From: Chiloscyllium plagiosum
Lineage: Eukaryota
NCBI RefSeq assembly: GCF_004010195.1
Contig: NC_057749.1
Coordinates: 17,638,146-17,702,145 of the forward strand
Direction of reading: 5' to 3'
DNA: 64,000 bases
In this document: piece by piece, positions 11,930 to 55,626 of the stretch
How the letters are laid out: the number at the start of each line of letters is the position of its first letter
How positions within the stretch are numbered: the first letter of the stretch is position 1
Translations under genes and position numbers: made by a program
Notes under the pieces: generated by a model
What the model saw: the letters and a program-made list of their open reading frames with translations, nothing else
Told to the model about the DNA's origin: nothing
The model's database searches: none

Positions 11930-11966
11930 ACTCCTGAAGAAGGGCTAATGCCCGAAACGTCGATTC
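11930..11966 (+). ncRNA. Minimal type-I hammerhead ribozyme motif in PLE pseudo-LTR (element about 11930-12058)
   Basis: CTGAAGA a GGGC taat GCCC GAAAC GTC. Confidence 0.7.
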
Positions 11967-12061
11967 TCCTGTTCCCTAGATGCTGCCTGACCTGCAGCGC
12001 TTCTCCAGCAACACATTTCCATCTCTGATCTCCAGCATCTGCAGATCTCATTTTCTCTTTC

Positions 12062-12400
12062 TGATCACCACCCAGCTAGAGTTAGAGGAATTGAAATTCC
12101 TTCCTGTTCAGGATTGGCTGGATTGTGCCAGGGAGCTCTGAATGCCGTACGATGTGGCCCTTGTACCTGGGGGAGTCCAGTGATGGGTACAAACCTGATA
12201 GCTCAGCCACTGCGGCACTCGATGCCCATGGTGAACTGGGCACTGACTCTATATTGTCGTGAGGTCCCAAGTGCTGCTTGTGGGCAGCACATTGCGAGAT
12301 GTCACACATCTCTCCGGCTGAGGTTTGACAGGAGCTGGTGATGAGAAGGTTCTTTGCCAATGCCACAGGCACAGAGCTGCCAGTTGCTGACATAGAGAAC
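12062..12400 (-). pseudogene. Degenerate HARBI1-like DDE transposase (PIF/Harbinger)
   Basis: Minus-strand peptides in order: SVPVALAKNLLITSSCQTSAGEMCDISQCAAHK, AIRFVPITGLPQVQG, AFRAP, LNRKEFQFL..LGGDQ. These follow the Harbinger motifs SGSFQ...GD..GISQ, IAGFP.V.G, RAP, NRKG.HSLN.Q.VCD. Confidence 0.75.
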
Positions 12401-12957
12401 ACTCCTGTTACCATGTGACGCTGTCTCTCATGCCCCTGCAGCAATGCCCTCGGTTGCCCCTGTCTGGGCACACTTCTCGCCAATTCTGAAGACCCTGGTT
12501 CCCCTCTACATGGCCTGCCTGCTCATGAAACACTGCAGCTGAGTTCTCTGAACCTCATGGCTGGGGTTCTGTTGGTACTGTTCATCCATTCTCCTCCTCC
12601 TCCTCCTCCGCTCTCCCTAACCACAGCTGGGCTAGCTTGGTTGAATATCTGACTTGGAAATACTCATCTGTGAGGTAAGGTCAGGAGTGAGGTGCATGGT
12701 CTCTATGTGGACATGGTCAAGCTGCTGTGTGGGCCCTTTTCAGGCAGTTCATGGGTTGGCTGAAAACCAGCCTCTCAAAATGACAAAGGGCATCCTCTGG
12801 GAACAGGAGCTGCTGTTTCTTCCCCTCCCCCTCCCCTTTCTCATTCTGCTGTGTGTGACCTTTATGTTACTTTGCCATCATTTTGCAATCAGCACAAAAT
12901 GGCTTGGTCATGTAGGAGATGAGACAGAAGATGTTTGTCCGCACTGGAGCTTGGAAG

Positions 12958-13356
12958 AGATTTTTAACCTTCCTGCGAATCCTCTTCCAAGGATGCCAAC
13001 CCTGAAGAAGTTCTCCTCTCTCTCTACAAGAATCTCAGTGTAGTCTCTCTCTCACTGAATCCTCTGCCCTGAAGCTCTTCAGCCACTTCCTGAAGCAGAC
13101 TCCCTACCACAGCCACATCTCCTTCCTCAGTGCCTGCCTCCAGAACCAACTGATCCCACACGGACTCCGGACCACGTTCAGACCAATACAGTCTGGGTCT
13201 GAACAGGACCAACCAGTACAGACTACAGATTCAAAACCTCCAGCAATGGTTAAAAAAAAAGCTAATTCCTGATGAAGGGCTTTTGCCCGAAACGTCGATT
13301 TTCCTGCTCCTCGGATATTGCCTGACCTGCTGTGCTATTCCAGCACCACTCTAATC
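12958..13356 (+). mobile_element. Penelope-like element fragment: ORF N-terminus joined to pseudo-LTR
   Basis: ALKLFSHFLKQTPYHSHISFLSACLQNQLIPHGLRTTF (H..FL..C....LIP.GL motif), followed by a hammerhead-bearing repeat. Confidence 0.7.
13264..13301 (+). ncRNA. Minimal type-I hammerhead ribozyme motif
   Basis: aattc CTGATGA a GGGC tttt GCCC GAAAC GTC gattt. Core intact; predicted cleavage after 13296. Confidence 0.8.
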
Positions 13357-13657
13357 ATGGCAGAAGGTGTCTAGCCTCTCTTCCCCAACTCCCACCCCCC
13401 CCCACCTCCCCATCAGGTACATGCTCTGATAGATATCATCTGGTTTGTCAACACCGTTCCCAGTTTGCCGCATTCAGGCTTGTGCCCATGGATGTAATTC
13501 CTGTGGCTGGAGTGTTAATGTGGATGGAAAGAAAGCTTTTGAGAAAGTACTAGCTAAGCTTTAACACCCCACTGTTGAAATATGGTCCTTGTCTCCTGGT
13601 CAGTTAAAGTTCACTGCCTAGCATTCTTAATCTCCAGGTAGGTCAGGAAGATTCCAC

Positions 13658-14217
13658 AATGTAGGAGCAAATTATTGCAGATGCTGGAATCTGTACTGAA
13701 AGTAAAACTTACTGCAGATCACAGCATGTCAGGCAGCATCTGATGATGAAAAGTTCACTGGACTGAAAACGTTAGCTTGCTCTCTCTCCACAGATGCTGC
13801 CTGACCCGCACGAGGTCCTTCTGCAGCTGTACAGGGCCCTGGTGAGACCACACCTGGAGTACTGTGCGCAGTTCTGGTCTCCAAATTTGAGGAAAGACAA
13901 TCTGGCTATTGAGGGAGTACAGCGTAGGTTCACGAGGTCAATTCCCAGAATGGCGGGACTATCTTACGCTGAAAGATTGGAGCGACTGGGCTTGTATACC
14001 CTTGAGTTTAGAAGACTGAGAGGGGATCTGATTGAGACGTATAAGATTATTAAAGGATTGGACACTCTGGAGGCAGGAAGCATGTTTCCACTGATGGGTG
14101 AGTGCCGAACCAAATGAATGGTGGTGCTGGCTCGAGGGGCAGAATGGCCTACTCCTGCACCTATTGTCTATTGTCTATTGACCCACTGTGATTTCCAGCA
14201 TTTTTTGTTTTCAGTCT
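13658..14217. mobile_element. PLE-type palindromic element interrupted by a CR1 fragment (13809-14178, +)
   Basis: Outer duplication ggaagat(t/c)ccac at 13646-13657 and 14218-14229. Inner ORF EVLLQLYRALVRPHLEYCAQFWSP with (ctattgt)n tail and tgaccc duplication. Confidence 0.8.
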
Positions 14218-15216
14218 GGAAGATCCCACCCCTAATTGGGGATTGGTTCCAAAATGAAGTTAAGTCAAAAGGGGCTCGGGAATGTCAAAGCTTTAATGAT
14301 TTAAAGTGGCAACAATGAGTTATATTAGTCTAGCCTCTTTAATACAGTGAAACACCATAAAGCACTTGGCAGCAACGTAATGAAGGAAATGTTGGCATTG
14401 AACATGATTGGTAAGGAATGTGAACCAAAAATATCAGGGACAGCTCTGAATTTTACAGTGTGGGCACATGGGGAAGTGAAACAGCATGTGGGACAGTTTA
14501 TTTATACTTGGTAGGAATAATAAAGGCTTTCCTCCTAAATCTTTGAAATTCAGTCAAAATGCATTTGTCATGTCTCTTTTAATGAGTTAACGTCCTGTGT
14601 GGGGGCCTGAGGGGAGAGGGGAAATGACAGTGTCTATACAGGCCCTTCTGGAGCTAGACCTCCTGCCGCACAAATACACAGCGCACCGTGAAGAGTGAGG
14701 GAGAATAGTTCTACCCTGCTGCTTACACGTTGCTATATGGACACAAGAGTTGTGCAAATAGAGAGGACTGGGGAGAATCATTTTGAAAAATGTATCTGAA
14801 ACATGTCAAGTACAATCTCATGCTTGGCATACAATCAGCATGAGGCTGTGAGTTGCTCCAGCTGCTTCATTTGATCAGTGTGGAGTTTCTAACACCTTCC
14901 TCTCGGCTGACAAATGAAAGCTATCATTTAACTAGAGGCAGGAAAAAATTACAATGAAGTGAAGGATGAACTGGAGAGGAAGGGCAGAGAAAAAAGATAA
15001 TGAAAATATCCAAGGTAGTCTTTGCATAAACTGATTCTGAAGCTGCTAATTCACAAAAGTGTGAAAGATTCCAACTGGAGTTAAATACATACACATGCAG
15101 GGCAGTGATTGGATGATTGCTTGAGTAGAGGGGTTTGGTTAGCTCAGCTGACTGAACAGCTGGTTTGTGATACAGAGTGACGCCAACTGTGTGGGTTCAA
15201 TTTCTGCATCGGATGA

Positions 15217-15435
15217 TTTGGAGATGCCGGTGTTGGACTGGGGTGGACAAAGTTAAAAATCACACAACACCAGGTTGTAGTCCAACAGGTTTAATTGGAA
15301 GCACTTGGTTGTAGAGGACACTATTGTAAGACACACAATCATGTTCTCTACAACCAGCTGATGAAGGAGCTCCGAAAGCTAGTGCTTCCAATTAAACCTG
15401 TTGGACTAAACCTGGTGTTGTGTGATTTTTAACTT
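15217..15435. mobile_element. Second PLE-type family palindrome with hammerhead core (15355-15384, +), inserted in a tRNA-derived SINE
   Basis: aaagttaaaaatcacacaacaccagg...ggaagcact is inverted at 15381-15436. Core CTGATGA aggagctcc GAAAGCTA gtg. TSD tgcatc(g/a)gatga at 15205-15216 and 15436-15447. Confidence 0.75.
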
Positions 15436-15824
15436 TGCATCAGATGAAGTGACCATGAGGGTAAGCTCAGCCCTTGCCTGAGGAATGATAACCTTCAGGT
15501 TAAACCACCACCCACCTTGTCTTTCTACGAGGGAGCAGCACTATGGGCTTGTAAACTATGATGGCTTTACTTGAGGAGATATAAAGGGACAGTCACTGAC
15601 ACCGTGTGATTCAAGGTTGGATTCACTCTGTGAAAACGTTTATACTTAGTAAAGTTTCATTTTGACTTCTTCTTCCACTGACTGCTATCAGGAGTGAACA
15701 CACACACAACTATTTGAAGAAGAGTAGGGTTATAGCCAATGTCCTGGTCAGTATGAATCCCTTAACCAACAGCACCAGCAACAGATTGGTCATTTAGCTC
15801 AGTGATAGGCTGCTGTGCTCTCCA

Positions 15825-16292
15825 GGAATAAAGGCAGTGAGCCTGGAGCGTGGAGAGATAAGCTAGAGGAGGGTGGGGGTGGGGAGAAAGTAGCAGAGAC
15901 TACAATGGGTGAGTGGGGGAGGGGATGATGGTGATAGGTCAGGGAGGAGAGGGTGGAGTNNNNNNNNNNNNNNNNNNNNNNNNNNNNNNNNNNNNNNNNN
16001 NNNNNNNNNNNNNNNNNNNNNNNNNNNNNNNNNNNNNNNNNNNNNNNNNNNNNNNNNNNNNNNNNNNNNNNNNNNNNNNNNNCCATTGTAGTCTATGCTA
16101 CTTTCTCCCCACCCCCACCCTCCTCTAGCTTATCTCTCCACGCTCCAGGTTCACTGCCTTTATTCCTGATGAAGGGCTTTTGCCTGAAACATCGATTTCT
16201 AAGCTCCTCGGATGCTGCCTGAACTTCTGTGCTCTTCCAGCACCACTAATCCAGCATCTGGTTTCCAGCATCTGCAGTCATTGTTTTTATCT
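15825..16292. mobile_element. PLE palindrome with gap at its centre and 14-bp TSD, inserted in a DeuSINE-like remnant (about 15705-16345)
   Basis: About 15824-15908 is inverted at about 16083-16168. tgctgtgctctcca lies at 15811-15824 and 16293-16306. Core ctgatgaagggcttttgcctgaaacatc starts at 16166. Confidence 0.8.
15960..16082. other. Assembly gap (N)
   Basis: Run of N. Confidence 1.
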
Positions 16293-16585
16293 TGCTGTGC
16301 TCTCCAACCTTACAACAAGTGCTGCACGTCAAAATATTTCCTTGGCTGTAACACACTTAGGGCTCAGATAAAGATATAAAGGCAAGTTATCACAATAAGG
16401 TGAATAAAGAGAAAACGAGGCAAGGTAAGGAGTGAAGGCAAAAGAGAAAGAAGATGGATGACAGCATCTACACAGGAAGAGTTGAAGAGAGTTGAAGACA
16501 GGGAACAGGGAAAAGGAATAGAGTGTGGGAGGAAACCCAAATGGGGGGATGCTGAGCAGCAGTTTACAGGGTGGCATCAATAGCT

Positions 16586-16872
16586 AGAATCATAGAATCT
16601 CTACAGTGTGAAAGCAGGTTATTCAGTCCATCAAATCCACACTGACCACCATATAGCAGACCTACCCCCTTACCCTATCCCTGTAACCCTGCATTTCCAA
16701 TGGCTAACCTACCTAACCTGCACATCACTGGGCACTATGGGCAATTTCCCAAGGTCAGTCCCCCCCTAAACAGCACATCTTTGGACTGCGGGAGGAAACC
16801 GGAGCACCCGGAGGAAATGTACACAAGACACAGGGAGAATGTGCAAACTCCACACAGACACTGGCCAGAGGG
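16586..16872 (-). mobile_element. HE1-type SINE, 5'-truncated
   Basis: ctttggactgcgggaggaaaccggagcacccggagg...gagaatgtgcaaactccacacagaca. Confidence 0.82.
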
Positions 16873-17130
16873 AGGAATCTATGGTTATGTTGACTTAGAA
16901 ATGGCAAACATTACTTGGAAAAGGTGAGGAGATCGATAGATAAAATATATCCAAGGGCTGTAATTTGTAACCTAAAAATGCATTCAACAGAGTTGCACAT
17001 GTAAAGCTTTCAAAAAGGCTGAAGGTCCTGAAATTAATAGCAAGACTGAATGAAATGTTTTTGCAATCAGGAACAATATTAATGATTCAACTCATAGAAA
17101 AGGTCAATGCAGTTGACTTGATCCTTTGTG

Positions 17131-17531
17131 GTAAAAACAATGACTGCAGATGCTGGAAACCAGATTCTGGATTAGTGGTGCTGGAAGAGCACAGCAATTC
17201 AGGCAGCATCCGAGGACAGGCAAAATCGACGTTTCGGGCAAAAGCCCTTCATCAGGAATAAAGGCAGAGAGCCTGAAGCGTGGAGAGATAAGCTAGAGGA
17301 GGGTGGGGGTGGGGAGAGAGTGGCATAGAGTAGAGACTCCCTGAGATTCTTGTAGAGAGAGGAGGAAAACTTCTTCAAGGCAGGCATCCTTGCAAGAGGA
17401 TTCGCAGTAGGGTTAAAATCAACGAGGTAAAAACAATGACTGCAGATGCTGGAAACCAGATTCTGGATCCTCGGATGCTGCCTGAATTGCTGTGCTCTTC
17501 CAGCACCACTGATCCAGAATCTGGTTCCCTT
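17131..17531 (-). mobile_element. Internally deleted mini-PLE with direct and inverted pseudo-LTR copies and 13-bp TSD
   Basis: gtaaaaacaatgactgcagatgctggaaaccagattctggat occurs at 17131 and 17427, with an inverted copy at 17468-17526. ttgatcctttgtg lies at 17118-17130 and 17532-17544. Confidence 0.82.
17223..17260 (-). ncRNA. Minimal type-I hammerhead ribozyme motif
   Basis: Minus strand tattc CTGATGA a GGGC tttt GCCC GAAAC GTC gattt. Confidence 0.8.
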
Positions 17532-18204
17532 TTGATCCTTTGTGAGCTAGTGGTCTGAAATATTCTGAAGAGTATTCTGGACTCGAAATGTTAGCTCTGC
17601 TTTCTTCCTGCAGAGCTGCGAGACCTTCTGAGATTCTCCAGAAATTTCTGTTTTTGTTTTAGATCTCCAGCATCCACAGTTCTATATTTTAGTTCAGAAA
17701 TGTTCACTGCCATGCATTAGCCACAGGATGATCAATAACACTGATATGACTTTGTGCTGCTGTGATTGAGCCAGGCTGGAAGATCAGTTGGTTTATCGAT
17801 GACCTGTCCTTGGTTCAGGTTGTGCAGGACTTGCATTGGACATGCTGCCAGAAGGGGATGAGTACCTTTGGAGCAATATAGTTAGAGGGAAGTGGACACC
17901 TTTCTGTATGAAATATGTTTCTGAATTTAGCTGGTAACTCTACAGGAGAAAAAGTCAATAATGTCAGCACCTGGTTGGATATAATGATTACAAAGTTCCT
18001 GTTGAGTCATACCTTGCAGCGTTTCTCAGACCCTAGCAGCTGTGTTGCTGCAGGCATTGACCTGAGGATCCCATGGAGCTGGTCTAGATACAGGCCAGCA
18101 CCTCAGACCCAGTCAGTCTAACAGTTAACGCAAACCCATGCATAATTATTTACTGACATACGTCTTGAGATTATCTCTAGGCTCTAATCTGGGTTACGTC
18201 TGAA

Positions 18205-18382
18205 TGTGTGTGTCTATGTGAGTGTGTGCATGTGTAGATGTGTATGTGAGTATGTGTAAGGGTGTGTGTCTCCTTGTGCGTGTGTGTATATCTGTGTGTG
18301 TGTCTGTGTGTGTTGGTGTGTGTCGGTGTGTGTGTGTGTGTGTGTGTGTGTGTCTGTGTCGGTGTGTGTGTTGGGGTTGGTG
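18205..18382. repeat. Imperfect (TG)n microsatellite
   Basis: Visible TG runs. Confidence 0.9.
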
Positions 18383-19030: not shown

Positions 19031-19709
19031 AGCTAATACAGAATAATGATACCTTGCTGGGATTGGATAAAGAAGTTTGGAAGGATTATATTTTCCTGAT
19101 CAAACCTCTAGAATAGGTGGGATATGGACCCAGTCCTCCTGGCTCAGAGGTAAGAGCACTACCATAAGCACTATAAAAACATCCTGAAGCTTGAGAGGAA
19201 ATGGATAGCTCTCATTCTGTCCAGCTGCAGGCAGCCTCTGATCTGATTTAACCAGGGAGTGAGCAGAGTAGTAAATGTGTGGCTGTATCCTGATGGGGTC
19301 TGATTATCAACGTGGACAGGTTTGCAGTCAGGAGTCAATCTTATAGTCAGTCGTGAATATGTATATCATGTACATATCAGTCTTGAATGTATATATCACG
19401 TCTCACCAAAAGAGAGAAGGGGGAGAAGTACAAATGGTATTTGAATCTCATTACAAAACTGATGATGATATTACAGAATAATCCAGAGGAAATTAATCCT
19501 CTTCCTATGATGGAAAGAAAGAGATTCCGAGGTCTGTGATTCCAACATTTCAATAGGTTTTGATCAAGATTTGAGACATGACCCTTGTACCTAATAGAAT
19601 AATAGACAATACCCATTCTTAAAGATCTGTTTACTGATGTACATTTTATTCAAAATTTTGTTAAAAATCACACAACACCAGGTCATAGTCCAACAGGTTT
19701 AATTGGAAG

Positions 19710-19744
19710 CACTAGCTTTCGGAGCGACGCTCCTTCATCAGGTG
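19710..19744 (-). ncRNA. Minimal type-I hammerhead ribozyme motif, second family (element about 19660-19750)
   Basis: Minus strand cac CTGATGA a GGAGC gtc GCTCC GAAA GC TA gtg: helix I cac/gtg, 5-bp helix II. TSD attcaaaattt at 19648-19658 and 19759-19769. Confidence 0.8.
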
Positions 19745-20281
19745 GTTGTGGCTAAATCATTCAAAATTTGGACTTACTTTTAAAAAATCAAATAGTTGGT
19801 CTTGGAAAGAGACCAAGCAGTTGTAAGGAGCTTGTTCTCTTTATATATAACATCTCTTTGGGCAAGATTCCAACTGAATCCTTTTGTCGGTCAGACGAAG
19901 TGGAATATTCGGTCACCTGTTACACTGTCCACCCATGTAGACCTTCCCAACACCCACTGTAGCAAGAGGTATCAGAACAATTCCTGGATGCAGGAACCAC
20001 CATGGACACATTGACAGCAATTGTCTCAAATTAAGGTTCAGATCACTGTGTTCATGCAATAAATAGAGTGAAGGAGCTAGGATTAAGGAACAGCAGTAGT
20101 CCATTTGAGCCCGTTGCACCCTTTAATATGATCATGTCTGATCATCCACTCCAATGCCTTTTACCCACCTTAACCCTGTACACCATCAGAAATCAGAAAT
20201 CTACCTTAAACACATGCAAAGACTGACATTCCATCACCCTCTAGGATCTAGAATTCGAAATATTCTCAGCACTTTGTGTCA

Positions 20282-21334: not shown

Positions 21335-21683
21335 AGGAAAAAGTGAGGACTGCAGATGCTGGAGATCAGAGCTGAAAAATGTGCTGCTGGAAAAGGAGTG
21401 GGAAGGGGGGTTAAAGTGTTCAAGGACATGCAGGTCCTTGGCCTCCTCCATCGCCAGACCATGGCAACATGACGCCTGCTAGGCATAACCCTCATCTTAA
21501 CCTCCTCCCACCTATCGCATTCCCAACGTCCCTCCCCCAAGTCCCTCCTCCCTACCTTTTACCTTGGCCTGCTTGCCACACCCTCTTCATTCCTAAAGAA
21601 GGGCTTATGCCTGAAACGTCGATTCTCCTGCTCCTTGAATGCTGCCTGACCTGATGCACTTTTCCAGCAACACATTTTTCAGC
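21335..21683. mobile_element. PLE fragment with inverted pseudo-LTR ends and 14-bp TSD
   Basis: Contains a KDMQVLGLLHRQT endonuclease-tail-like peptide. tgtgtggactaacc lies at 21321-21334 and 21684-21697. The hammerhead core is mutated (ctaaaga). Confidence 0.75.
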
Positions 21684-21756
21684 TGTGTGGACTAACCTCC
21701 TCATATTATTGCAGAGGTCATTCCAGCCTGCTTGTACCCCACCGGGGATGGGGTTT

Positions 21757-25092: not shown

Positions 25093-25592
25093 NNNNNNNN
25101 NNNNNNNNNNNNNNNNNNNNNNNNNNNNNNNNNNNNNNNNNNNNNNNNNNNNNNNNNNNNNNNNNNNNNNNNNNNNNNNNNNNNNNNNNNNNNNNNNNNN
25201 NNNNNNNNNNNNNNNNNNNNNNNNNNNNNNNNNNNNNNNNNNNNNNNNNNNNNNNNNNNNNNNNNNNNNNNNNNNNNNNNNNNNNNNNNNNNNNNNNNNN
25301 NNNNNNNNNNNNNNNNNNNNNNNNNNNNNNNNNNNNNNNNNNNNNNNNNNNNNNNNNNNNNNNNNNNNNNNNNNNNNNNNNNNNNNNNNNNNNNNNNNNN
25401 NNNNNNNNNNNNNNNNNNNNNNNNNNNNNNNNNNNNNNNNNNNNNNNNNNNNNNNNNNNNNNNNNNNNNNNNNNNNNNNNNNNNNNNNNNNNNNNNNNNN
25501 NNNNNNNNNNNNNNNNNNNNNNNNNNNNNNNNNNNNNNNNNNNNNNNNNNNNNNNNNNNNNNNNNNNNNNNNNNNNNNNNNNNNNNNNNNNN
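25093..25592. other. Assembly gap (N)
   Basis: Run of N. Confidence 1.
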
Positions 25593-25618
25593 AACCAACC
25601 CCAACAAAAAAATTGGGA

Positions 25619-28125: not shown

Positions 28126-30438
28126 GAAGAGGTTCTTTAAGTACATTAAAGGAAAAAGAATAGGGAGAATAGGGCCCCTGAAGGACCAAAATGGACATGT
28201 ACGTGTAGAGCCACAGGAAATGGGTGAGGTCCTCAATGAATATTTCTCCAGTGTGTTTACCATGGAGACTTGGAAACTTGGGCAAGTTAGTGCTGATATC
28301 TTGGGGACAGTCCGTGTCACAGTAGAGGGAGTGTTGGATGTATTAGCATGTATGAAGCTGGATAAATCTCCTGGTCCTGAGCAGATATATCCAAGAACAC
28401 TGCAAGAGGCTAGAGAAAGAATAGCAGGGGTACTGGCTGATATTTTTGCAAAATCATTAGCCTCGGGTGAGGACCCGGAAGACTGGAGGATAGTGAGTGT
28501 TGTGCCCTTATTCAAGAAGGGCTGCAAAGGAAAGTCTGGAACTACTGTGGTGGGTAAGTTACTTGAGATGATTCTGAGAGATACATGCATTTGGAAAGAC
28601 AGGGTTTGAATAGGAGTAGTCAGCATGGCTTTGTGAGTGGCAGATCATGCCTCACAAATTTGTTAGAGTTCTTTGATATAGTGACCAGGAAGGTTGATGA
28701 GGGCAGGGTGGTAGACGTGGTCTGTATGGATTTCAGTAAGGCCTTTGATAAGGCTCCACATGGTAGGCTGCTCTGGAAGGTAAGATCACATGGAATCCAG
28801 GGGGAGCTGGCAAATTGGATACACAGCTAGCTTGATGGTAGGAAGCAGAGGGTAATAGTGGGAGGTGCTTGTCGGACTGGAGGCCTGTGACTAATGGAGT
28901 GCCTCAGGGGTCGGTGCCGGGCCCATTACTGTTTGTTATCTATATCAATGATTTGGATGAGAATGTACAAGGCATGATTAGTAAGTTTGGGGATGACACT
29001 GAAATAGGTGGGACAGTGAGGAAGGTTATCAGAGATTGCATCAAGACCTGGGGAAGTGGGCCGAGAAATGGCAAATGGAGTTTAATATCAATAAGTGTGA
29101 GGTCTTAATTGCAGCAAGACCTGGGGAAGTGGGCCGAGAAATGGCAAATGGAGTTTAATATCAATAAGTGTAAAGTCTTACATTTTGGAAAGTTAAATCA
29201 AGGTGGGAGTTTCATGGTGAATGGTAGGGCCTTAAGGAGTGTAGTGGAACAGATGGTGATAATAGTAGTGTTGTCCCAGTCGAACTCATGTTGCTTGTCA
29301 TCTGTGTGTGTGGCTACTAAGGATAGCTGGTCTAAGGACAACAACTCACCAGGACGAAGGACCTGATACCCAGCATGAGCAAAACTAATGTAGTGTACAA
29401 AATTCCATGCAAGGACTGCACAAAACTCTACATAGGACAAACAGGAAAACAGCTAACGATCCGCATCCATGAACACCAACTAGCCACGAAACGACATGAC
29501 CAGCTATCCTTAGTAGCCACACACGCAGATGACAAGCAACATGAATTCGACTGGGACAACACTACTATTATAGGACAAGCCAAACAGAGAACAGCCAGGG
29601 AATTCCTAGAGGCATGGCACTCATCCACATATCAATAAGTGTGAGGTCTTACATTTTGGAAAGTTAAATCAAGGTGGGAGTTTCATGGTGAATGGTAGGG
29701 CCTTAAGGAGTGTAGTGGAACAGAAGGACCTTGGAGTTCAGATGCATGGTTCTCTGAAAGTGGAGTCCCAGGTAGACAGGGCAGTGAGGAAGGCTTTAGG
29801 CACACTGGCCTCCATCAGTCAGGGCATCGAGTATAGAAGTTGGGAAGTTATGTTGCAGTTACACAGGACATTGGTGAGGCCACGCTTGGAGTATTGTGTT
29901 CAGTTTTGATCACCTTGTTATAGGAAGGATGTTACTAAACTGGAAAGAGTGCAGAAGAAATTTACAAGATGTTGCCAGGACTCAATAGTCTGAATTATAG
30001 GGAGTTGCTGGACAAGCTAGGGCTTTTTTCTTTACAGGGTAGGGGACTGAGGGGGGATCTTATAGAAGTGTATAAGACCATGAGAGCCATGGATAGGGTG
30101 AATGCATTCAGTCTTTTTCCCAGGATTGGGGAATCGAGGACTAGAGGGCATCAGGTTAAGGTTAGAGGGGGAAGAATAAATGGGAACGTGAGGGGTGACT
30201 TTTTTAAACAGAGGGTGGTACGCATATGGAATGAGCTGCCAGTGGAAGTGGTAGAGGTGGGTACATTAACAACATTTAAAAGGCATTTGGACAAATACAT
30301 GGATAGGAAAGGATTATAAGGATATGGGCCAAGTGCAGGGAAATGGGGTTAACATGGATGGACATTTTGGTCAGGATGGGCCAGTTTGGGTCAAAGGGCC
30401 TGTCTGTGTGCTGTAGGACTGTATGACTCTATGACTCT
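28126..30438 (+). mobile_element. CR1 LINE, about 2 kb of ORF2 RT (frameshifted), interrupted by a PLE
   Basis: [84 protein letters not shown]; tail tatgactctatgactct. Confidence 0.95.
29254..29628 (+). mobile_element. Penelope-like GIY-YIG endonuclease fragment with inverted 5' segment
   Basis: NVVYKIPCKDCTKLYIGQTGKQLTIRIHEHQ...H....HEFDWDN...REFLEAWH. 29259-29332 is the reverse complement of 29498-29571. Confidence 0.92.
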
Positions 30439-32740: not shown

Positions 32741-33180
32741 GTCTGTCTCTCTCTCTCTCTGTCTCTCTCTCTCTGTCTGTCTCTCTCTCTCTCTCTGTCT
32801 ACTGTGGCTATAACACTGTATTCCGCATTTTGAGAAGATTTGTAGCTCCGGTTGAGGTTCTGGATGTAGGTTTGCTCGCTGAGCTGGAAGGTTTATATTC
32901 ACCATACTGGGTAACATTTTCAGTGTGTCTCCAGATGAAGCACTGGTGGTGTAGCCCACTTTCTATTTGTGTGTTTGGATAAATACACATAAATAGAAAG
33001 CGGGTTATACCACTAGTGCTTCATCCAGCTCAGCAAGCAAACCTACATCCAGAACTGTATCCCGTACTCTGTTCTACTACCCTAATGTACTTTGTATGGT
33101 ACAATTTGCCTGTATTACAGGTAACGCAATACTTTTCACTGTGTCTCAGTACACGTGACAATAATAAATCAATAAAACAT
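32430..33180 (+). mobile_element. Rex1/Babar-like LINE 3' end with (TCTG/TC)n tract and nested PLE-type insert (32826-33053)
   Basis: Degenerate LPSTDSI...IKDLSHSG...PLLSGRR...RFKSSFFPAEIRLL. The insert is flanked by actgtat(t/c)ccg. Confidence 0.65.
32656..32800. repeat. (TC)n/(TCTG)n microsatellite
   Basis: Directly visible. Confidence 0.95.
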
Positions 33181-34568: not shown

Positions 34569-34694
34569 TTCTGGAGTAGAGTGGTGCTGGAAAAGCACAG
34601 CAGTTCAGGCAGCATCCAAGGAGCAGGAAAATCTGATGTTTCGGGCAAAAGCCCTTCATCAGGAATACCAGCATCTGCAGTCATTGTTTTTACC
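34569..34694. mobile_element. Short PLE pseudo-LTR insert with 15-bp TSD and minus-strand hammerhead-like core
   Basis: ttgttgaaaaaggca lies at 34554-34568 and 34695-34709. Contains gtttcgggcaaaagcccttcatcagg. Confidence 0.8.
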
Positions 34695-36594: not shown

Positions 36595-37330
36595 GTATGG
36601 AAGGTGCTAGCTATGAAGAGAGGTTGAGTAGGTTAGGATTGTTTTCATTAGAAAAAATGAGATTGAGGGGGGACCTGATTGAGGTTTACAAAATCATGAA
36701 GGGTATAGACAGGGTGGATAGAGATAAGCTTTTTCTCAGGGTGAGGGATTCAATAATGAGAGGTCACACATTCAAGGTGAGAGGTGAAAAGTTTAAGGGG
36801 GATACACGCGGAAAGTACTTTACACAGGATGGTTGTGGAGAAAGTGAGGACTGCAGATGCTGGAGATCAGAGCTGGAAATGTGTTGCTGGAAAAGCGCAC
36901 CAGGTCAGGCAGCATCCAAGGAGCAGGAGAATCGACGTTTCGAGCATGAGCCCTTCTTCAGGAATCATAAATCATGAGCCCTTCTTCAGGAAGAAGGGCT
37001 CATGATTCATGATTCCTGAAGAAGGGCTCATGCTCGAAATGTTGATTCTCCTGCTCCTTGGATGCTGCCTGACCTGGCGCACTTTTCCAGCAACACATTT
37101 TCAGCACAGAGGATGGTAGTGCCTGGAACGCGTTGCCAGCAGAGGTGGTAGAGGCAGGCACGGTAGATTCATTTCAGGTGCGTCTGGACAAATTCATGAG
37201 TAGGTGGACAACAGAGGTGTACAGGTCCTTAGGAATTGGGCAACACGTTTAGACAGTGCATTTGGATCAGCTCAGGCTTGGAGGGCCGAAGGGCCTGTTC
37301 CTGGGCTGTAAACTTTCTTCTTTGTTCTTT
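36595..37330 (+). mobile_element. CR1 3' fragment interrupted by a PLE palindrome (about 36837-37105)
   Basis: SYEERLSRLGLFSLEKMRLRGDLIEVYKIMKG...YFTQ. CR1 resumes at 37106. Confidence 0.9.
36929..37047. ncRNA. Back-to-back hammerhead motifs on opposite strands (36929-36966 minus; 37011-37047 plus, variant)
   Basis: Minus: gattc CTGAAGA a GGGC tcat GCTC GAAAC GTC gattc. The plus copy has GAAAT GTT. Confidence 0.7.
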
Positions 37331-47445: not shown

Positions 47446-48855
47446 CATGATTCCCCTGTTTTGGGAAAGTGGTTTTTGGAAAGGTGATTCCGTTCTTCAT
47501 TCTGTGAATCTTACCTCTGAGCTGCTCCTTCCTGGACTGATGAATGCCCTGTTCCTCTGGCAGTGATGAGCTCAGTGACCTTAACACAGTCTGAATTGGT
47601 GACCACTAATTCTGAGTCTTGTGATATTTGCACTCAGAAACACACCAACAGTTGAGATAGATTTGATTCTCCAGCCTCATTAGATTAACCTGCTTATTTT
47701 GTTGCAATTATTATGCATCTTATATTGTTGCATTCACCAGAATCCTCATGTCTCATATCATTAAGTCTAGTCAGAACAAATCAATTAAAGCAAAAGGGTT
47801 TATTTAAAATGCAGAGTAAAGCAGATTATTTTCCTCATGCATACGCTGTGCTACTGACCATCTGAAAACATGTGCACAGCCTTGACATTACACATGGTCA
47901 GGCACAGCCTGTCAGGTTCCTGTATCACAATTGCATAAAACAATCCCCATGTTCCCCTCTTGAGCACATGGGGTCGCAGGTCAACTTGCTCAGTCACTAC
48001 AGAAGATCCAGGTTGATTAAAGTCACCCACTGCCTGTAACATGGACACGGGAAATAATAATGATTGGGCATGAGCGGATAGAGAAAGACTGGTTGGGAAT
48101 GGGAAGCTGTGGTGACGGGAGTTGGTGAGGCGAGTGGGCATAAGAGTAAAGATTGGGGAGAGTGGAGCTTTGGCAGAGGGGTGGCACAGAGAACACGAGA
48201 TAGATGCACCAGAGGCGTGTAACGTTCCTAATGGAGATTGGAAACCCATTCTTCCACTGCACCTCCCAAACACCACGTGAAAGGCAGCAGATCCATGGGG
48301 TAGAATCTCCTCAGCCCCTGAACCAAGGGGGTTCTGGCACTGGCAGTTCATCGGGAAATTCGGGTGAGATCAGCAAAAGTGAGCTTATCAAAATTGAGAA
48401 GAAAGTCTGATTGTCCAAACGATGTGGTGATCAGTGAGAGAAGAATGTTGCTTGTGAGAGGCAAGAGGCCTTTTTAATTCATTCATGTGATGAGGGTGTC
48501 ACTGGCTGAATCAATATTTATTACCCACCCCTAATTGCCCAGAGGACAGTTAAGAGTCAACCACATTGCTGCGGGTCTGGAGTCACATGTAGGCCAGACC
48601 AGGTAAGGATGGCAGTTTCCGTCCCTAAAGGACATTAGTGAACCCAGGTGAGTTTTTCCAACAATTGACTCATGGACATCATTAGACTGTTAATTCCAGA
48701 TTTTACTGAGTTCAAATTCCACCATCTGCTGTGGCAGGATTCAAACCTGGGTCCCCCAGAACATTACCTGGGTCTCTGGATTAACAGTCCAGCGATAAAG
48801 CCACCAGGCTATCATCTCCCCCAGTGGATTTACATGCATTAGCATGTTATTATTA

Positions 48856-49018
48856 GGAGAAAGTGAGGATTGCAGATGCTGGAGCTCAGAGTCAAGAGGG
48901 TAGTGCTGGAAAAGCACATCAGGTCAGGATGAAGGGCTTACGTTTACGCCCGAAACATCAATTCTCCTGCTCCTGGGATGCTGTCTGACCTGCTGTGCTT
49001 TTCCAGCACCACACTCTG
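48856..49018. mobile_element. PLE palindrome with 14-bp TSD
   Basis: gcatgt(t/c)attatta at 48842-48855 and 49019-49032; inverted gtgctggaaaagcac arms. Confidence 0.78.
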
Positions 49019-51514
49019 GCATGTCATTATTACCATCGGCATGTTGTTGATGTGTAATTTCCTGTTCTCCCACCCACTGGACAGAAACAAAATGGAAAGA
49101 ATTCCCGCTGTGAAAGTCAGAGCAGGAACCTGCTGCCTGAAGCTCACTGCTTGCTCCTTCAGATCTCCATCTCTCAGGGCATGCTCCATCTGCAACGTGT
49201 GTCCATGGGCATTGGCATTGGGCATGTACCAGCCTGACACCACCCTCTTGGCACATCACTCAACCACCCACAACACACTGTGCATGGTCAGGCTGCAGTT
49301 TGGAGTACACTGATGGCTGGAGATAGACAACTGTACTTTGTGCCCAGGGGCAGGCACCAGCTCACGGGTTCGAGTGAGGGGGTTTCTCAGGGCTCCTCAC
49401 GTACTCCCTTAGTGCTCACTAACTTTGGGCTCACTCAGATGCAGTACCTTACAGTATCTCTGCCTTGAAACTGTATTGCTATAACAGCACAGCAGGTCAG
49501 GCAGCATCCAGGGAACAGGAGATTCGACGTTACGGGCACAGGCCCTTCTTCAGGCCCTTCTCTGCCTTGCCTTTTCAAAGCTTCTGCCAGAGCTCGGTGT
49601 ACTTCAGTCTTGCCTTGTCTTTTAACACAGACACAGAGGGAGGCAGCTTGCCATCAGTGATGCTGAAAGTGTAATGCTCCCTGCGACTGGATTCTGAGGT
49701 GGGCTAACAGTGAGGTCAGTGAACTCCAGTAGCTTGGTTCATCAATAGCAAATACCATTTCCCAACATGCACTTGGAATTGCAATGAAGGGTCAGCCCTG
49801 CCACCTCTGTGCTCTCAGGAAGATTTCCTTTCGGTTTCTCTTCCACGACATCGATAAGCAAAGGGAGCCCCTGCCTGATGGGGTTTCACTGAGTGCAGAC
49901 CTGTGTCAGCGTGGTGAATGTTAGGAGAACCTGGTCGAGTGGGTTCAGGAGAAAGTGAAGATGGTACGATTGGAGAATGATGGAGCTGTGGTGCTGAGGC
50001 AATGAGGTGAGCCGCAGGGAATGATGGGTAAAAGCTCACTCGGTCTCACAGAAGGTAAACCTGTAAAACTCACCAAAATTAACATTCAGCCCATGGGAGG
50101 ATCAGCAGCTGTAGGTTCCTCTCCAAAACCTGACTGGGACTGTATAGTCATTCCTTCAGTATTGTTGGGTGAAAACTCCATCTGTAAGAGCACAGTGAGC
50201 ATACTCACAGCACATAAACTGCAGTGGTTCAACAAACAGGTCCAACCGCCATTTCTCAAAGACCTGCAGCTGGGAAAGAGAGAACAGCCTTACTGATGGT
50301 GCCCACCTCACCAGGATGAAATAAAAATAACTCAAGGCCACAAGAAGTCCCTGTTGATCTGGCCAGATATTGTTTGGAATTACACGCAGATAAATGAAGC
50401 TTAATATAAGGTTCTTATGGTGCAGTGACAATGTCCCTATCTTTGAGCCAGGAGACCTGAGTTCAAGTCCTACTTGCTCTGGAGCTGTATAATAACATCT
50501 CTGAACAGCTTGATAAGAAAAAAAGATAACTTTTTTTTTAAATCAGACTGAAACTTTGGAGTTTTCAGCCGTCTCACCCACCGCACTGAGAGACTTGTGC
50601 TGATTGGGTAATCTAATGTTCCACAAATTTCAATAAATCAATTTGTAATATTTGTGCTGAAGTCCATGTAATCACTCAAACTGCTATTGAATTTAGATGA
50701 AAGCACTTTATTATGCAAAACATGATCCTTAGAGGAAGTAATTAGTTTGTGAATAATAATGAATTTGCACTGTGCTAATAATATTTGGTCTGCTGAGCAA
50801 TGGCAACAGGCATGTCATTACTGAACATTTTCTGGTTGGTTTCGGATCCTGTGTTAAAGTTTGATAAATGATGGGATGATGGAAGTGAGCGTGATGTGGG
50901 AAATGAACTGATTGCAAGTGAATACAAAGGGACGTGTGTTGGGAACTCTGTGCCAGTGCGTGCGAACAGGAATGGGTTCGGGTCCATTGGGATTATGTGC
51001 TGTGGAAGTGAGGGGAAATGGGTTTAGGTCCATTGTCTTAGTATGGAGTGGGAAGGGATGTGGATCCATTGCAATTGTGTGGAGTGGGAGTGAATGGGTT
51101 TGATTAGTTGGGCTTGAAATTATGGCTCGTTCTGCTGGAACCTGAACCTGCAGGAATGCTCTCTCAGACCAGAACTCCCTCCCTAGTGGCTGAGGAGTTA
51201 GCTGGAACTGCCTCGTGTCTTATCTGTTTGCTATTGACAGGAGAGAAATTTCTACATTGGGACAGTTTCTACTTTTTTACTGAAAACCCATCAGAAGAAG
51301 AAGGGAGTGGACAATTCCTGCTGCAGTAACCTAACCGACTCGGTGACCAGTCCCTGGCCTTATCTTCAGAACTGCCAGCGGAACATGGATCAATCCCCTT
51401 GGAACAATGGCATTGCCAGAGCTAAACATTTTCATTTCCAAACTTATACAACTGGGAGCCTGTTAAAATCTGGCCTGTCCATTTTGCATTGCTGTGGCAA
51501 ATAATATGTGCTTT

Positions 51515-51870
51515 TTGATTCTTTCATTGGATATGAGTGTTGTTGGCTGAGCCAGAATTCATGATCCTTGTGAGCATTATGATGAACTGCTGCAGTCCAT
51601 GGCTGTGGGTAGACCCACAATGCCCTTAGGGAGAGAATTCTAGGATTTTGACCCAATAACACATAAGGAACGGCGATATATTTCTGAATCAGTCTGGTGA
51701 GTGGCTTGGAGGGGAACGTGCAAGGGACGGTGTTCTCCTGTACCTGCTGCCCCTTGTCCTTCAGGGTAGTAGTGGATGTGGAGTTAACAGGTACTATCTA
51801 AGGAGCCTTGGTGAAATACTACAGTGCCTCTTGTAGATGGTATACAATGCTGCTCCTGAGCATCAGTGCT
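51515..51870 (-). mobile_element. CR1/L2-group LINE 3' end (same family as 7718-8855)
   Basis: ctgcagtccat...gacccacaatgcccttagggag...gtgagtggcttggagggg. Confidence 0.65.
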
Positions 51871-52019
51871 GGTTTATAATTCTGTTGCATTGCAGTATGG
51901 GGTTTTGTGTCTGTCTATCCAATTCCATTGAGAGTTTATTAATAAACAGGGTAGGTGTCTGGCAAGCTACCTTGTCTCAAATGAAGTCACTAATTGGCTA
52001 ATTGATGGTAAATCGGTAA

Positions 52020-52340
52020 ACCATGTGGACAAAGCCCTTTTGACCTCCCTGAGTCTGCACTGACCCCCGAAGGGTACCCCACATCCCACCCACCCCTGCC
52101 CTATCCCTTTAGCCCTGCATTTACCATGGCTAATCTATCTAACCTGCACAAACCCTGGACACTTTAACATGGCTAACTCACCCTGACCGGTACATCTTTG
52201 GACTGTGGCAGGGAACCGGAGCACCCGGAGGAAACCCATGCAGACACGGGGAGAATGTGCAAACTCTACAGGGGCTGGAATCGGACCCGGGTCACTGGGG
52301 ATGTAAGGCAGCAGTGCTAGTTAGTGAGCCACCTTGCCAC
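52020..52340 (-). mobile_element. HE1-type SINE
   Basis: ctttggactgtggcagggaaccggagcacccggaggaaaccc...gagaatgtgcaaactc. Confidence 0.82.
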
Positions 52341-55030
52341 CCAGAGTTCTCTCCTGTTTAGGCTCTCTGTCTCCATTAGAGACCTTCATTAATGGTAATG
52401 GGCATTTCCTCACTGGCTTGCTGCCCCTGCTCTGATCATGGACTCTCCATTCCTCCCCACTTTCAGTGAGACCTGCGTGACTGGCCTTGAGGTTGCTGCC
52501 TGCAAATCTGACTGGATCCTCATCAGGTACAGGGTGCAGTGCATGCCGTGGTCTAGTCACTGCTCCCTTTCATGCTGCTGGGTTCTCTCACAATTCCTCA
52601 GCCATAGGCCAGGCTATCACCTGTCGTTGTCTTTCTGATCCCAGGAATTGTGACACCAGATGTGCTGCCCTAACATGTACAGTAGCTCATTGCCAATGGG
52701 AACATAAGCGAGGGAGTAGTTGCACAGGAACTTACTACTGGGGGATTGGAATTGTACCTTTATATGGTCATAACCCTGGAGGCAGAGACCACACTTCCCT
52801 CACTCAGTGGGCAGGTTTGGTTGATTCTAACTACAGTTAATTGGGAAAATAACTTATCGTTACCAAGAAATGATGATGAAGTAATCTACGAATTGCAATC
52901 ATTCTGCATAGTGAACTGACTAACGCAGTACTGTCGAAAGTGTCATAAATCCAGCCAAGGTTATAAAATCTTGATCATCAATTTTTTTGCTATCTTAAAT
53001 TCCTATGTGGAAATTTGCTGGGAAGTCTCTATCTCTCAATTGCAGAGGGTTACGGAGACAGAACAGGGGGATTGTGACTGATTGGGGGATTGGCTGGTCA
53101 GATTGTCTCTTTCATTGCAGGATTGTTCTGGGATCCTCTGAAATGTAGAGTGTTCTGTAAATCTCTCGCCTGTGAGCAGGCTGACTGCAAGGGAGCAGTG
53201 GCCCCTGGTTAGATCACGCAATAGAATTCCGCCTGATTTTCCTATTCCCTGCCGCGTGACAGCCTCTGTAGTTACCTTGTTTACAAATGGGACATTTCCA
53301 TTCAATGGGACAGAGTTAGGGCTCAAATCTCAGGCTTCAGCAGTTTGTGTTAACTCCAGCAAGTCAACCAACTCCAGGAACAGACTCTGTCATCGAGAGA
53401 GCATTCTCGCTAGTGACATTGGTGACAAAAGAAATGAAAGAGGGACACATGACAAAAGTGTCAACACATTATCCGAAGAATTTGTAACAAGATTGGCGAG
53501 CAGCGAGCAGAGTTGTAGTAGCCCGTTGAAGACCCACTGGGAACCAATAGAAAACTGAGTTAAGCAGCAACAATAGCTTGTCTTCACAGAGCACCTTCGC
53601 CTAGCTTTAATGCACAGAAATCACTCGTTGAATCCAATAGGACAATGCCCCTGTTCATGCTGAGAATAAGCCTCCTCTAACCCTTCTTCATCTAACCCCA
53701 TTAACATGTCCTTTTATTCCTTTCTGCATTATTGTGTTTAACCAGCTTCCCCTTTACGATGTCTCAGACACCACATCACCATGGGCAGGACCGACCCAGC
53801 AGAAATGGTGGCACAGTGCTGGACAGCTGTGGCAAAGTTGCCTTGAGAGTTTTCAGCATTAACTTGGGACCAGTAACTGGTCAATCATGGGCAAGGAAAC
53901 CTCCTGCTGATTATCACATAGTGTCCTCCCTCAGCTGATGAATCCGCACTCCTCTACGTTGAACAAGCACTGAGGATGGCAAGGGCACAGAATGTTCTCT
54001 GGGTGAGGGACTTTGCCATCCAGTAGCACCATTACTGACCCAAGCCCTAAAGAACATTGCAGCTTCGGCAGCTGGTCATAGAGCCTGTCCCAGGTTGAAT
54101 GATAAATAAATCCTCCCTACGGTAACTGGATCCACATTCTCACCACTTTCATTGTAAGTCTCTTCCCAAAGAGTATCAGGAAGCAAGGCTTGACCCAAAG
54201 CCACAGGAGTGAGTATTACGCCAGGTGAATGTACACTAGGAGGAACATCTTAAGATGGAGTGGAAGTGGGTGGTGAGGTGAGGTGTTGGTTTCAGGAGAA
54301 GTACCGTACCGAAGCATTCCGGTTTATTCGGAATGAGGAGGCCAGTCTGTGGTTTACTTCTGTCTTTCAAGTATTTTTTATTTGATCCATAAAATGAGTG
54401 AGAAGAGAAATTGTTTGTGAGCGATTGCTTCAAAGCCAGCAACAGTGAAGTAATCTTACGTTATTTGGTCTCTAGAAATTGCACTTTTTACAAAGGCAAG
54501 GACTCTGCAGGTTTCTAGAGTACAGCTTGTTCCACACTGGCTCATCAATCGCACTAAATTTCAATTCTAAACAATTTTGCTGTACTTCGCTACACTCTGT
54601 GTTTAGTAATCTAGCTCGGCAATCGAAACAATTGAACAAAGGAACAAGACAGAGACGAACAAAGTGAGAAATTAGTCATCAGGTCAGGTTCAACTGACCT
54701 GAGCTGATCATGGTGCCATTAAGCTTAAAGCCAGATCCAAAACTGAGTAATTTCAGAGAGGGGGAGCACACAGGTTTAGAGAGGAATAAAAGCGTTATCA
54801 TTTCTGAGCTCTCGCCTCTTGCCTGCTGAAGTCTTTGATGCACTCGAGGGTATAGATCAATGGCGACAGTCATTCTCTGCTCTCTCACTGAAATGTCAAT
54901 CTCTCTGGTTAGTTCCAGCCAGTAATGTCAGTAAAGCTATGCAACTACGGAGGAGGCGTTGCCTTCAAATTTGTTCAGCACACCCCCACTTTCCAGCAGA
55001 TGGGCCACTGAGTAAGAACGCTGTGTTTCT

Positions 55031-55257
55031 ATTTTAAAAAAACATCCAAAGAACTGCAGATACTGGAAATCAGAAACCAAAACAGAAATTGATGGAAAAG
55101 CTCAGCAGGTCTGGCATCACCTGTGGAGAGAAATCAGAGTTAATGCTTTAGGTCCAGTTCTGAGGAAGGGTCGCTGGACTGGAAACGTTAACTCCGATTT
55201 CTCTCCACAGGTGATGCCAGACCTGCAGAGTTTTTTCCAGCCATTTCTGTTTTTGTG
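55031..55257. mobile_element. Third PLE-type family palindrome with hammerhead-like core (55156-55193, +) and 11-bp TSD
   Basis: agtt CTGAGGA agggtc gctg gactg GAAAC GTT aact. gctgtgtttct lies at 55020-55030 and 55258-55268. Confidence 0.72.
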
Positions 55258-55591
55258 GCTGTGTTTCTTTTCTTGCCTCAGCCAGAGGTACAGAGACCTG
55301 GTGCCCACCCTCACTGAGATTCACTCACTTTCGGAATGCAGGGACAGGGCAGGCCTCTTGCCCCTTGAGTCTGCTCAACAAACCAATTTAACCACAGCTG
55401 GTGCATATTTTAATTCCATGTACCTGCCTGTCCTGCCTGAGGATAGGTGACACAGCAGGGCCAATGGGCTGAATGGCCTAATTTTGCTCCTACACTTGAT
55501 GGTTTTAGGAAACAGGGTAGATCCGGAGAAATGAGCTGAAAATGTGTTGCTGGAAAAGCGCAGCAGGTCAGGCAGCATCCAAGGAGCAGGA

Positions 55592-55626
55592 GAATCGACG
55601 TTTCGGGCATTAGCCCTTCTTCAGGA
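55592..55626 (-). ncRNA. Minimal hammerhead motif in PLE pseudo-LTR (element about 55525-55627)
   Basis: Minus strand tc CTGAAGA a GGGC taat GCCC GAAAC GTC gattc. Confidence 0.72.

Follow-up and report, generated by a model that had tools for sequence, protein, structure and literature searches.

The window analysed here is a stretch of 64,000 nucleotides from the shark Chiloscyllium plagiosum (contig NC_057749.1, positions 17,638,146 to 17,702,145 of the forward strand), in which an initial annotation had described a dense population of minimal hammerhead ribozymes carried by short Penelope-like elements (PLEs). We find that these minimal type-I hammerhead motifs are very probably part of the pseudo-long terminal repeats (pseudo-LTRs) of PLEs, of which at least three lineages (families A, B, and C) were once active in this genome, a reading to which we assign a probability of roughly 0.87. 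The attribution to PLEs is borne out by family B, whose motifs flank reverse transcriptase (RT) open reading frames (ORFs) with relatives that carry the RVT_1 and GIY-YIG domains. The description of the carriers as short holds in part: they are PLEs by identity, and most of them are truncated, dead insertion products that decay neutrally.

Hammerhead cores in the window

Using a strict descriptor of the minimal hammerhead (CTGANGA, 0-1 extra nucleotides, four or more base pairs in helix II, GAAA, a 15.2/16.2 pair that is palindromic, then T and H), we obtained six matches in the window, and these are the same six cores that had been reported from inspection (11934+, 13269+, 17255-, 19741-, 36961-, and 55624-). 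Two hundred first-order Markov simulations of the window give a chance expectation of 0.01 matches (maximum 1). A looser pattern matches 22 times, against 7.2 +/- 2.8 expected. The intact cores, with a density of one per 10.7 kb, are as follows.

11934..11961, plus strand: intact core, family A (N7=A, loop TAAT); predicted cleavage after 11961
13269..13296, plus strand: intact core, family A (N7=T, loop TTTT); predicted cleavage after 13296
17228..17255, minus strand: intact core, family A (TTTT)
19713..19741, minus strand: intact core, family B (GGAGC-GTC-GCTCC; helix III AGCT; H17=A)
36934..36961, minus strand: core, family A (loop TCAT), helix II GGGC/GCTC paired through one G-U
55597..55624, minus strand: intact core, family A (TAAT)

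The variant or mutated cores that had also been noticed prove to be decayed or truncated copies of the same repeats (3879+/3891-, 15358+, 16166+, 21589+, 34662-, 37016+, 55160+, and 62946-), and further copies not on the earlier list lie at 48928, 49554, 13740, and 17565. We count ~18 insertions in the window, about one every 3.6 kb; 12 belong to family A and three each to B and C.

Three families share one catalytic core

The window motifs sort into three interspersed repeat families.

Family A: N7 is U or A; helix II GGGC/GCCC; loop II TTTT, TTAT, CTGT, TAAT, or TCAT; helix III ACGU; H17 is C
Family B: N7 is U; helix II GGAGC/GCUCC; loop II of 3 nt, variable (GTC, AGC, AGT, GGC, and others); helix III AGCU; H17 is A
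Family C: N7 is mostly G; helix II GGGUC/GACCC; loop II of 4 nt, variable (ACTG, ACCG, ACTC, and others); helix III ACGU; H17 is U

All families retain CUGANGA, one extra A, GAAA, and UH. To compare them position by position we parsed 12 real copies from the three families helix by helix with a script; a MAFFT alignment had shifted family B by one column. The catalytic core C3-U4-G5-A6-N7-G8-A9...G12-A13-A14...U16.1-H17 is present in all six window cores and all 12 parsed copies, and between families it differs only at N7 (U, A, or G) and H17 (C, A, or U; never G). The remaining differences lie in loops and helices, and in the parsed copies the helices vary by compensating substitutions. For instance, helix II is closed by G10.1-C11.1 while its third and fourth pairs are substituted with compensation, the palindromic 15.2/16.2 pair is either C-G or G-C (ACGU in A and C, AGCU in B), and helix I has C-G or U-A at 2.1/1.1 and U-A or A-U at 2.2/1.2. 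The claim that helix II keeps its pairing as sequence and loop change stands, and extends across three families. The claim of one extra A between A9 and helix II stands equally: this nucleotide is found in 6/6 window cores, and it lies unpaired between A9 and 10.1 in 12/12 parsed copies.

The number of contiguous helix I pairs is two in most of family A, three in B, and four to five in C; the CTGT subfamily of A regains a 4-bp helix I. Family C is represented in the window by three decayed copies only. We deduced its intact form from these by assuming helix II pairing, and this form was subsequently found in the genome. Families A and C have downstream sequence in common.

The motifs flank PLE reading frames

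Family B motifs enclose RT-like ORFs at two loci. In the first example (locus L058), two minus-strand motifs (5491 and 2974, a spacing of 2,517 bp) bracket RT-like ORFs of the same strand. In the second (L074), plus-strand motifs at 972 and 4016, 3,044 bp apart, lie in direct orientation around an ORF. The family B ORF begins immediately past the long end of the repeat, ~125 nt downstream of the motif. Among named relatives of the L058 ORF the best-scoring are from sharks (65-73% identity), with turtle and other animals more distant. P0012 (797 aa) and P0023 (809 aa), full-length relatives of the L058 ORFs, contain RVT_1 and a C-terminal GIY-YIG domain, and residues 158-796 of P0012, endonuclease included, align at many loci of this genome.

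In family A the tail is followed by a separate ORF start, ~170 nt downstream of the motif, and that ORF lineage is homologous to the same PLE proteins: its visible part at L083 matches the family B ORF with E 2e-13 and P0004 with E 3e-14. At L082 a single strand carries an ORF start, a 2.9-kb N stretch, a 3' untranslated region (3'UTR)-like extension, and a TTTT-type motif, the motif sitting 3.6 kb downstream of the ORF start. All three lineages have the motif on the sense strand, after the 3'UTR and before the ORF start. No PLE ORF was seen between the motifs at six family A same-strand-pair loci that we inspected (L040-L045).

The coding remnants in the window are two.

13072..13209, plus strand: N-terminal ORF fragment of a family A element, just upstream of the 13269 motif; weak match
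29378..29617, plus strand: PLE GIY-YIG endonuclease remnant (tblastn P0009 E 8e-6, P0004 9e-6, P0012 2e-4)

The first matches the N-terminal L058 ORF weakly (E 0.003, in a small search space), and its peptide recurs genome-wide (150 places scored of 3,362 candidates). The second is the sole match of PLE proteins to the window by tblastn. A Pfam search of the genome for GIY-YIG gave one weak match among 150 places scored of 14,403 candidates; in the window none of 25 long ORFs matches Pfam, and no coding exon is recognised.

Runs of N hide the portions of young PLE copies that encode RT and endonuclease at L074, L081, L082, and L083; long open frames at these four loci (900-1,300 aa) were rejected as artefacts of the N runs. 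Within the window N runs occupy 2752-3465, 15960-16082, and 25093-25592. Fragments of CR1/L2-type long interspersed element (LINE) ORFs (C-terminal, ...LVRPxLEYC...) often neighbour PLE copies, as at 13815-14117 in the window and at L040, L041, L044, and L058-L060.

Copy ends point to retroposition

An all-against-all BLAST of 30 family A loci defines the ends of the copies. The shared unit runs from 4 nt before the motif to ~+93 or to ~+126-135, and 28 of the 30 3' ends fall into two classes, 16 short (+88 to +100) and 12 long (+124 to +135), with 2 others. Family B has a short end at +88 and a long end at +125 (~14 short, 12 long, and 3 full-length copies). The alternative 3' ends lie about 35 nt apart, and neither family has a poly-A or microsatellite tail at its copy ends. 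Target-site duplications of 10, 11, 13, and 15 bp were found among four family A copies (L038, L020, L034, and L021). Given these duplications and their variable length, we conclude that the units are retroposed copies and not DNA transposons. A miniature inverted-repeat transposable element, with the head-to-head pairs taken for long terminal inverted repeats, was likewise considered and rejected: the target-site duplications measure 10-15 bp, the copies are mostly solo, and the motif flanks RT ORFs.

An inverted partial copy abuts the motif edge in 8 of the 30 family A copies. Among the first 100 places listed per family, motifs that neighbour each other within 2 kb are arranged minus-then-plus in 14 cases versus plus-then-minus in 2. 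Same-strand neighbours within 2 kb number 3 among the first 100 family A places listed versus ~2.5 expected from density, which is chance level; no tandem arrays were seen, only scattered two-copy cases. Minus-then-plus pairs in the window occupy 3761-3978, 15213-15437, 15823-16292, 34580-34694, 36836-37105, 48855-49013, and 55098-55257. At a further locus (L050; C1:1658407-1661435) a minus-strand family A copy sits inverted within a family B tail and has the repeated B sequence on either flank, a case of one PLE copy nested within another.

These ends can be compared with work on the Poseidon element of Anolis; here and below, published results are cited from excerpts of the papers. Frangieh et al. 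2024 (PMC11167929) describe a genomic tail signature, unique to PLEs, that arises from two adjacent internal RT start sites, and a Poseidon enzyme that cuts and extends both target strands. By analogy, the two copy ends in the shark would correspond to two internal start sites of the PLE reverse transcriptase, and the inverted pairs would result from cutting and extension of the two DNA strands by the enzyme. Such two-strand extension (PMC11167929) predicts copy pairs joined at their 5' ends, and our data fit this prediction. New copies end 88-93 nt or 125-135 nt past the motif, and they are 5'-truncated, very often exactly at the 5' edge of the motif. The motif would be kept intact in master elements only. 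We propose that two copies on one transcript could pair through the palindromic ACGU or AGCU to form helix III and that such paired motifs may cleave slowly, probably aided by PLE protein. Solo copies in host transcripts, with a helix I of 2-4 bp and no helix III, would be unlikely to cleave usefully.

Copies decay neutrally and are abundant

To keep the sampling of family A copies independent of the core, we gathered them by their downstream part alone. Of the 27 found at loci that had not been selected by the core of the copy in question, three (one of them L060) keep the full 28-mer and eight pass a loose core pattern. Divergence was measured from the nearest real reference copy in 39 copies, these 27 together with the window's own 12. 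At non-CpG sites it is 11.9% in the motif (-4 to +28) versus 10.6% downstream (+29 to +93); at CpG sites it is 20.5% versus 18.7%. Given that motif and downstream sequence diverge alike, no constraint acts on the inserted copies. The core would be retained solely along master-element lineages. Decay of the dispersed copies is neutral and fastest at CpG sites, and the majority of copies are probably inactive.

The genome search covered 3.56 Gb. Family A has 87,506 exact matches, family B 41,653 with at most one mismatch, and family C 10,807 with at most two; reversed-pattern controls gave 0 in each case. A generic core pattern with no pairing rule matches 198,732 places versus 5,848 for its reversed control. 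The number of core-intact motifs genome-wide is thus ~193,000, or one per 18 kb. The initial annotation had counted about one motif per 5 kb, and this figure describes the window with its decayed copies included and not the genome, because intact cores are spaced genome-wide at one per 18 kb; extrapolated to intact cores it is ~3.4-fold too high. Since so few core-blind family A copies kept the full 28-mer, the decayed background is probably several-fold larger.

Transcripts and the question of host RNA cleavage

Poly-A single-cell RNA reads from the same species cover the repeat units ~100-280 deep, in either direction, and have zero depth on the unique sequence between units. Reads spanning the 5' edge at 11932 for the most part enter one 3'UTR-like extension (agreement 0.6), and the corresponding DNA contigs are heterogeneous (0.36), a hint that longer elements are over-represented among the expressed copies.

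It had been suggested that the motifs impose a very large load of potential self-cleaving sites on introns and nascent RNA. Our data do not uphold this: solo copies lack helix III, copies decay neutrally, and read ends do not pile up. In addition, same-strand neighbours occur at chance and the window has no recognised coding exon. Self-cleavage by solo copies is unsupported.

Evidence against and alternative interpretations

Several observations weigh against the reading of these repeats as hammerhead-bearing PLE pseudo-LTRs. Firstly, the PLE status of family A draws on the N-terminal 130 residues of its ORF and on its anatomy, because the RT and endonuclease interiors of young elements read N. 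Secondly, the cis helix I of most family A copies amounts to 2 bp plus a mismatch. Thirdly, a hammerhead model search of the window, proposed as a check, was negative with Rfam: its covariance models give no match at gathering score and, at E up to 10, 19 matches with no hammerhead among them. The 19 are hairpin-type microRNA look-alikes at head-to-head junctions (the junction at 36836..37105, for example, scores merely as a hairpin). Rfam hammerhead models match none of these motifs because they demand helix III and a longer helix I. Fourthly, RNA ends after 13296 had been named as a further check, and no read-end pile-up occurs there or anywhere else, 11961/11962 and 13296/13297 included, in the poly-A single-cell library, which is a weak test. 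Fifthly, ViennaRNA forms the helix II hairpin and has the remainder prefer non-hammerhead pairings, in monomer and dimer. Lastly, the 5' ends of 17-18 of the 30 family A copies cluster at -4..0 relative to C3, in the 5' strand of helix I.

The predicted folds, which decide neither for nor against the ribozyme, have some detail of their own. In the minimum-energy fold of the TTTT subfamily (13265-13297), the core UGAUG pairs with CGUCG around the predicted cleavage site. With this pairing, which is weaker in the N7=A subfamilies, the helix II hairpin grows into a closed structure that would be a competitor of the active fold. The predicted dimer fold includes an extended GAAA...UUUC palindrome, and minimum-energy dimers are not hammerhead-like.

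The first alternative is that these PLEs retain the hammerhead-like fold for some function that is not self-cleavage, for instance as a binding platform for PLE protein near the RT start sites or as a signal around the translation start, and that cleavage in vivo is incidental or absent. In the excerpted Anolis Poseidon work, catalytic-core mutants left in vitro insertion unchanged, cleavage required protein, and RNA-seq reads ending at the cleavage site were absent (PMC11167929), in agreement with the reads here, whose ends do not cluster at predicted cleavage sites either. Metazoan minimal motifs are also reported to be poor cleavers in vitro (PMC4209133). However, the positions that stay invariant across three lineages are the catalytic ones (CUGANGA, GAAA, U16.1, and an H17 that is never G). 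Fixed catalytic positions among freely changing helices and loops are the pattern predicted by selection for catalysis, and a protein-binding hairpin alone needs neither a G-free H17 nor a palindromic 15.2/16.2 pair. We therefore consider a purely non-catalytic role possible and on the unlikely side.

The clustered 5' ends invite a second alternative, in which the N7=A units of 100-135 nt are not random truncations; they would instead be a minimal PLE parasite resembling a short interspersed element (SINE), composed of the hammerhead and the RT start region. The pile-up differs by subfamily (15-16 of 18 copies with N7=A, 2 of 12 with TTTT). At that edge 9-10 of the 30 copies abut unrelated flank and 8 abut an inverted copy, and in the window the family A edges at this point are 11930, 13265, 34667, and 55627. 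The pile-up point differs from the hammerhead cleavage site (+28). If the units are SINE-like, a process tied to the motif may set the 5' end, be it transcription that starts within the pseudo-LTR, a programmed stop of the RT, or non-canonical RNA processing. We hold this to be doubtful. If it were true, 10^5 or more copies would form the largest hammerhead-motif reservoir known in a vertebrate, and close pairs in host transcripts could cleave nascent RNA.

A third alternative would make the short units non-LTR retrozymes, which are non-coding, carry a hammerhead in every tandem unit, and spread through self-cleaved circular RNAs. Short same-strand repeats do exist (two TTTT motifs 776 bp apart at L044, two motifs 406 bp apart at L045, and a repeat with a period of ~295 nt at 17130-17469 of the window), internally deleted non-coding derivatives occur, and retrozymes are reported as derived from PLE pseudo-LTRs (preprint 10.64898/2026.07.22.740005, in excerpt). 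Yet the copies are mostly solo, with target-site duplications and two PLE-type 3' ends, same-strand neighbours do not exceed the density expectation, and, unlike circle-derived monomers, the units have ends that miss the cleavage site at +28. Retrozymes are for these repeats a very improbable explanation. Finally, the idea of a CR1/L2-type LINE, or its SINE, whose 3' tail forms the repeat and resembles a hammerhead by coincidence can practically be dismissed: CR1/L2-like ORF fragments adjoin several copies (L040, L041, and L044; window 13815 onward), but at L044, read base by base, the LINE frame stops at an unrelated junction ahead of the repeat, the motifs flank PLE-type ORFs instead, a poly-A or microsatellite tail is absent, and three unrelated or distantly related repeat bodies have just the hammerhead core in common, with compensating changes.

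Other copies and features of the window

The intact cores belong to the following units.

11930..12057, plus strand: family A unit, long form (-4 to +124), tail included; blastn 92% over 126 nt
13265..13350, plus strand: family A unit, short form; 94% to a TTTT copy
17130..17332, minus strand: family A (TTTT) copy with ~75 nt of 3'UTR-like extension and a long tail; 93% over 203 nt
19660..19751, minus strand: family B unit, short form
36836-36965, minus strand, long, and 37012-37105, plus strand, short, core decayed at CpG sites: family A head-to-head pair
55525..55627, minus strand: family A unit, by blastn

The remaining copies are decayed or truncated.

3761-3891, minus strand, long, and 3879-3978, plus strand, short: family A head-to-head pair, both cores mutated or truncated
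13740..13814, plus strand: decayed, truncated family C copy; limits approximate
15213-15304, minus strand, and 15346-15437, plus strand: family B head-to-head pair, core 15358 without helix II loop
15823-15959, minus strand, and 16083-16292, plus strand, with the N run 15960-16082 between them: family A (TTTT) head-to-head, joined within the 3'UTR-like extension
16166, plus strand: mutated core in the plus arm of the 15823..16292 structure
17425-17469, minus strand, and 17468-17529, plus strand: two 5'-truncated family A tail pieces, head to head
17561..17683, plus strand: decayed family C copy, core at 17565; limits approximate
21335-21395, minus strand, then 21589-21687, plus strand: family A pieces, core mutated to CTAAAGA
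34580-34667, minus strand: family A short copy, helix III decayed to ACAT, abutting a 28-nt inverted tail piece at 34667-34694
48855..49013: family A head-to-head pair, both 5'-truncated
49465..49554, minus strand: family A (CTGT subfamily) short copy, core GTAA for GAAA
55098..55257: family C copy, decayed core 55160 (plus strand), inverted partial copy ahead; limits approximate
62823..62946, minus strand: decayed family B copy, long form

Three further features lie outside these repeats. At 1164-1354 a near-perfect foldback of ~190 nt with tRNA-like box sequences (GGTTCGATTC) has sub-threshold scores on both strands for a plant microRNA precursor and is probably two SINE copies head to head. 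At 32937-33022 a near-perfect 80-nt hairpin is scored below threshold by several microRNA precursor models, again on both strands. Lastly, 61857-62660 is open in five of six reading frames, contains no N, and is presumably a simple or low-complexity repeat.

Significance and comparison with known systems

Minimal hammerheads in PLE pseudo-LTRs, with their extra nucleotide, dimer-type helix III, and solo scatter, have been known since 2014 (PMC4209133), and only the scale and the host lineage are new here. Our literature search found no paper on such motifs in cartilaginous fishes; Lunse, Weinberg and Breaker (RNA Biol 14:1499) may bear on this novelty. Whale-shark repeats are reported to include PLEs (PMC8455134), and the 2026 preprint 10.64898/2026.07.22.740005, which ties tandem retrozymes to PLE pseudo-LTRs, sampled one chondrichthyan according to its excerpted text. 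At least three lineages and ~193,000 core-intact motifs with compensating changes in helices I, II, and III amount to a clean natural experiment and supply material for a better covariance model, given that current Rfam models miss all of them. The copy ends and head-to-head pairs offer an independent genomic view of a mechanism that was worked out in vitro for one lizard element. In annotation, these sequences should be labelled PLE fragments rather than ribozyme genes.

The closest known motifs are the minimal type-I hammerheads that Cervera and De la Pena 2014 described in metazoan PLE pseudo-LTRs (PMC4209133). Shared features are the type-I layout, the unpaired nucleotide between A9 and 10.1, the G10.1-C11.1 pair, a helix III that consists only of the palindromic 15.2-16.2 pair, and a short putative helix I, for which the published range is 2-5 bp, with 2 bp in D. 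virilis. In both, a genome contains several covarying consensus families, and most motifs are solo, alongside opposite-strand pairs 100-700 bp apart. In that work, single minimal motifs had no detectable cleavage in the excerpted results and dimers cleaved weakly. Scale sets the shark apart, with ~193,000 motifs here versus ~4,000 in coelacanth and ~9,000 in Xenopus, the published counts being made with another descriptor. Helix II has 4-5 bp here versus 7-8 bp in Schistosoma, and the host is a cartilaginous fish, outside the hosts treated in the excerpted parts of that paper. Drosophila virilis Penelope differs by a helix II bulge, a 2-nt palindromic helix III insertion, and a copy number of 130 versus 10^5 here (PMC4209133).

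Animal non-LTR retrozymes (Cervera and de la Pena 2020, PMC7229834) are likewise hammerhead-bearing non-coding derivatives related to PLE pseudo-LTRs, and their monomer offspring are scattered over chromosomes as the copies are here (Li, Clavereau and Pollet 2026 preprint; PMC7229834). These sources, as excerpted, define retrozymes by tandem arrays and circular RNAs, whereas tandem pairs are rare here. In the Poseidon element PAc of Anolis carolinensis (PMC11167929), as in the shark, two alternative copy ends lie 30-40 nt apart, there are signs that both target strands serve (in the shark, the head-to-head pairs), the hammerhead adjoins the ORF start, and RNA-seq ends at the cleavage site are absent. 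The PAc ORF starts inside the motif, with its AUG within CUGAUGA, whereas the shark ORFs start ~125 nt (B) or ~170 nt (A) downstream. The PAc mechanism was established by biochemistry, and the two copy ends and the head-to-head pairs of the shark elements, known from their sequence, are consistent with it.

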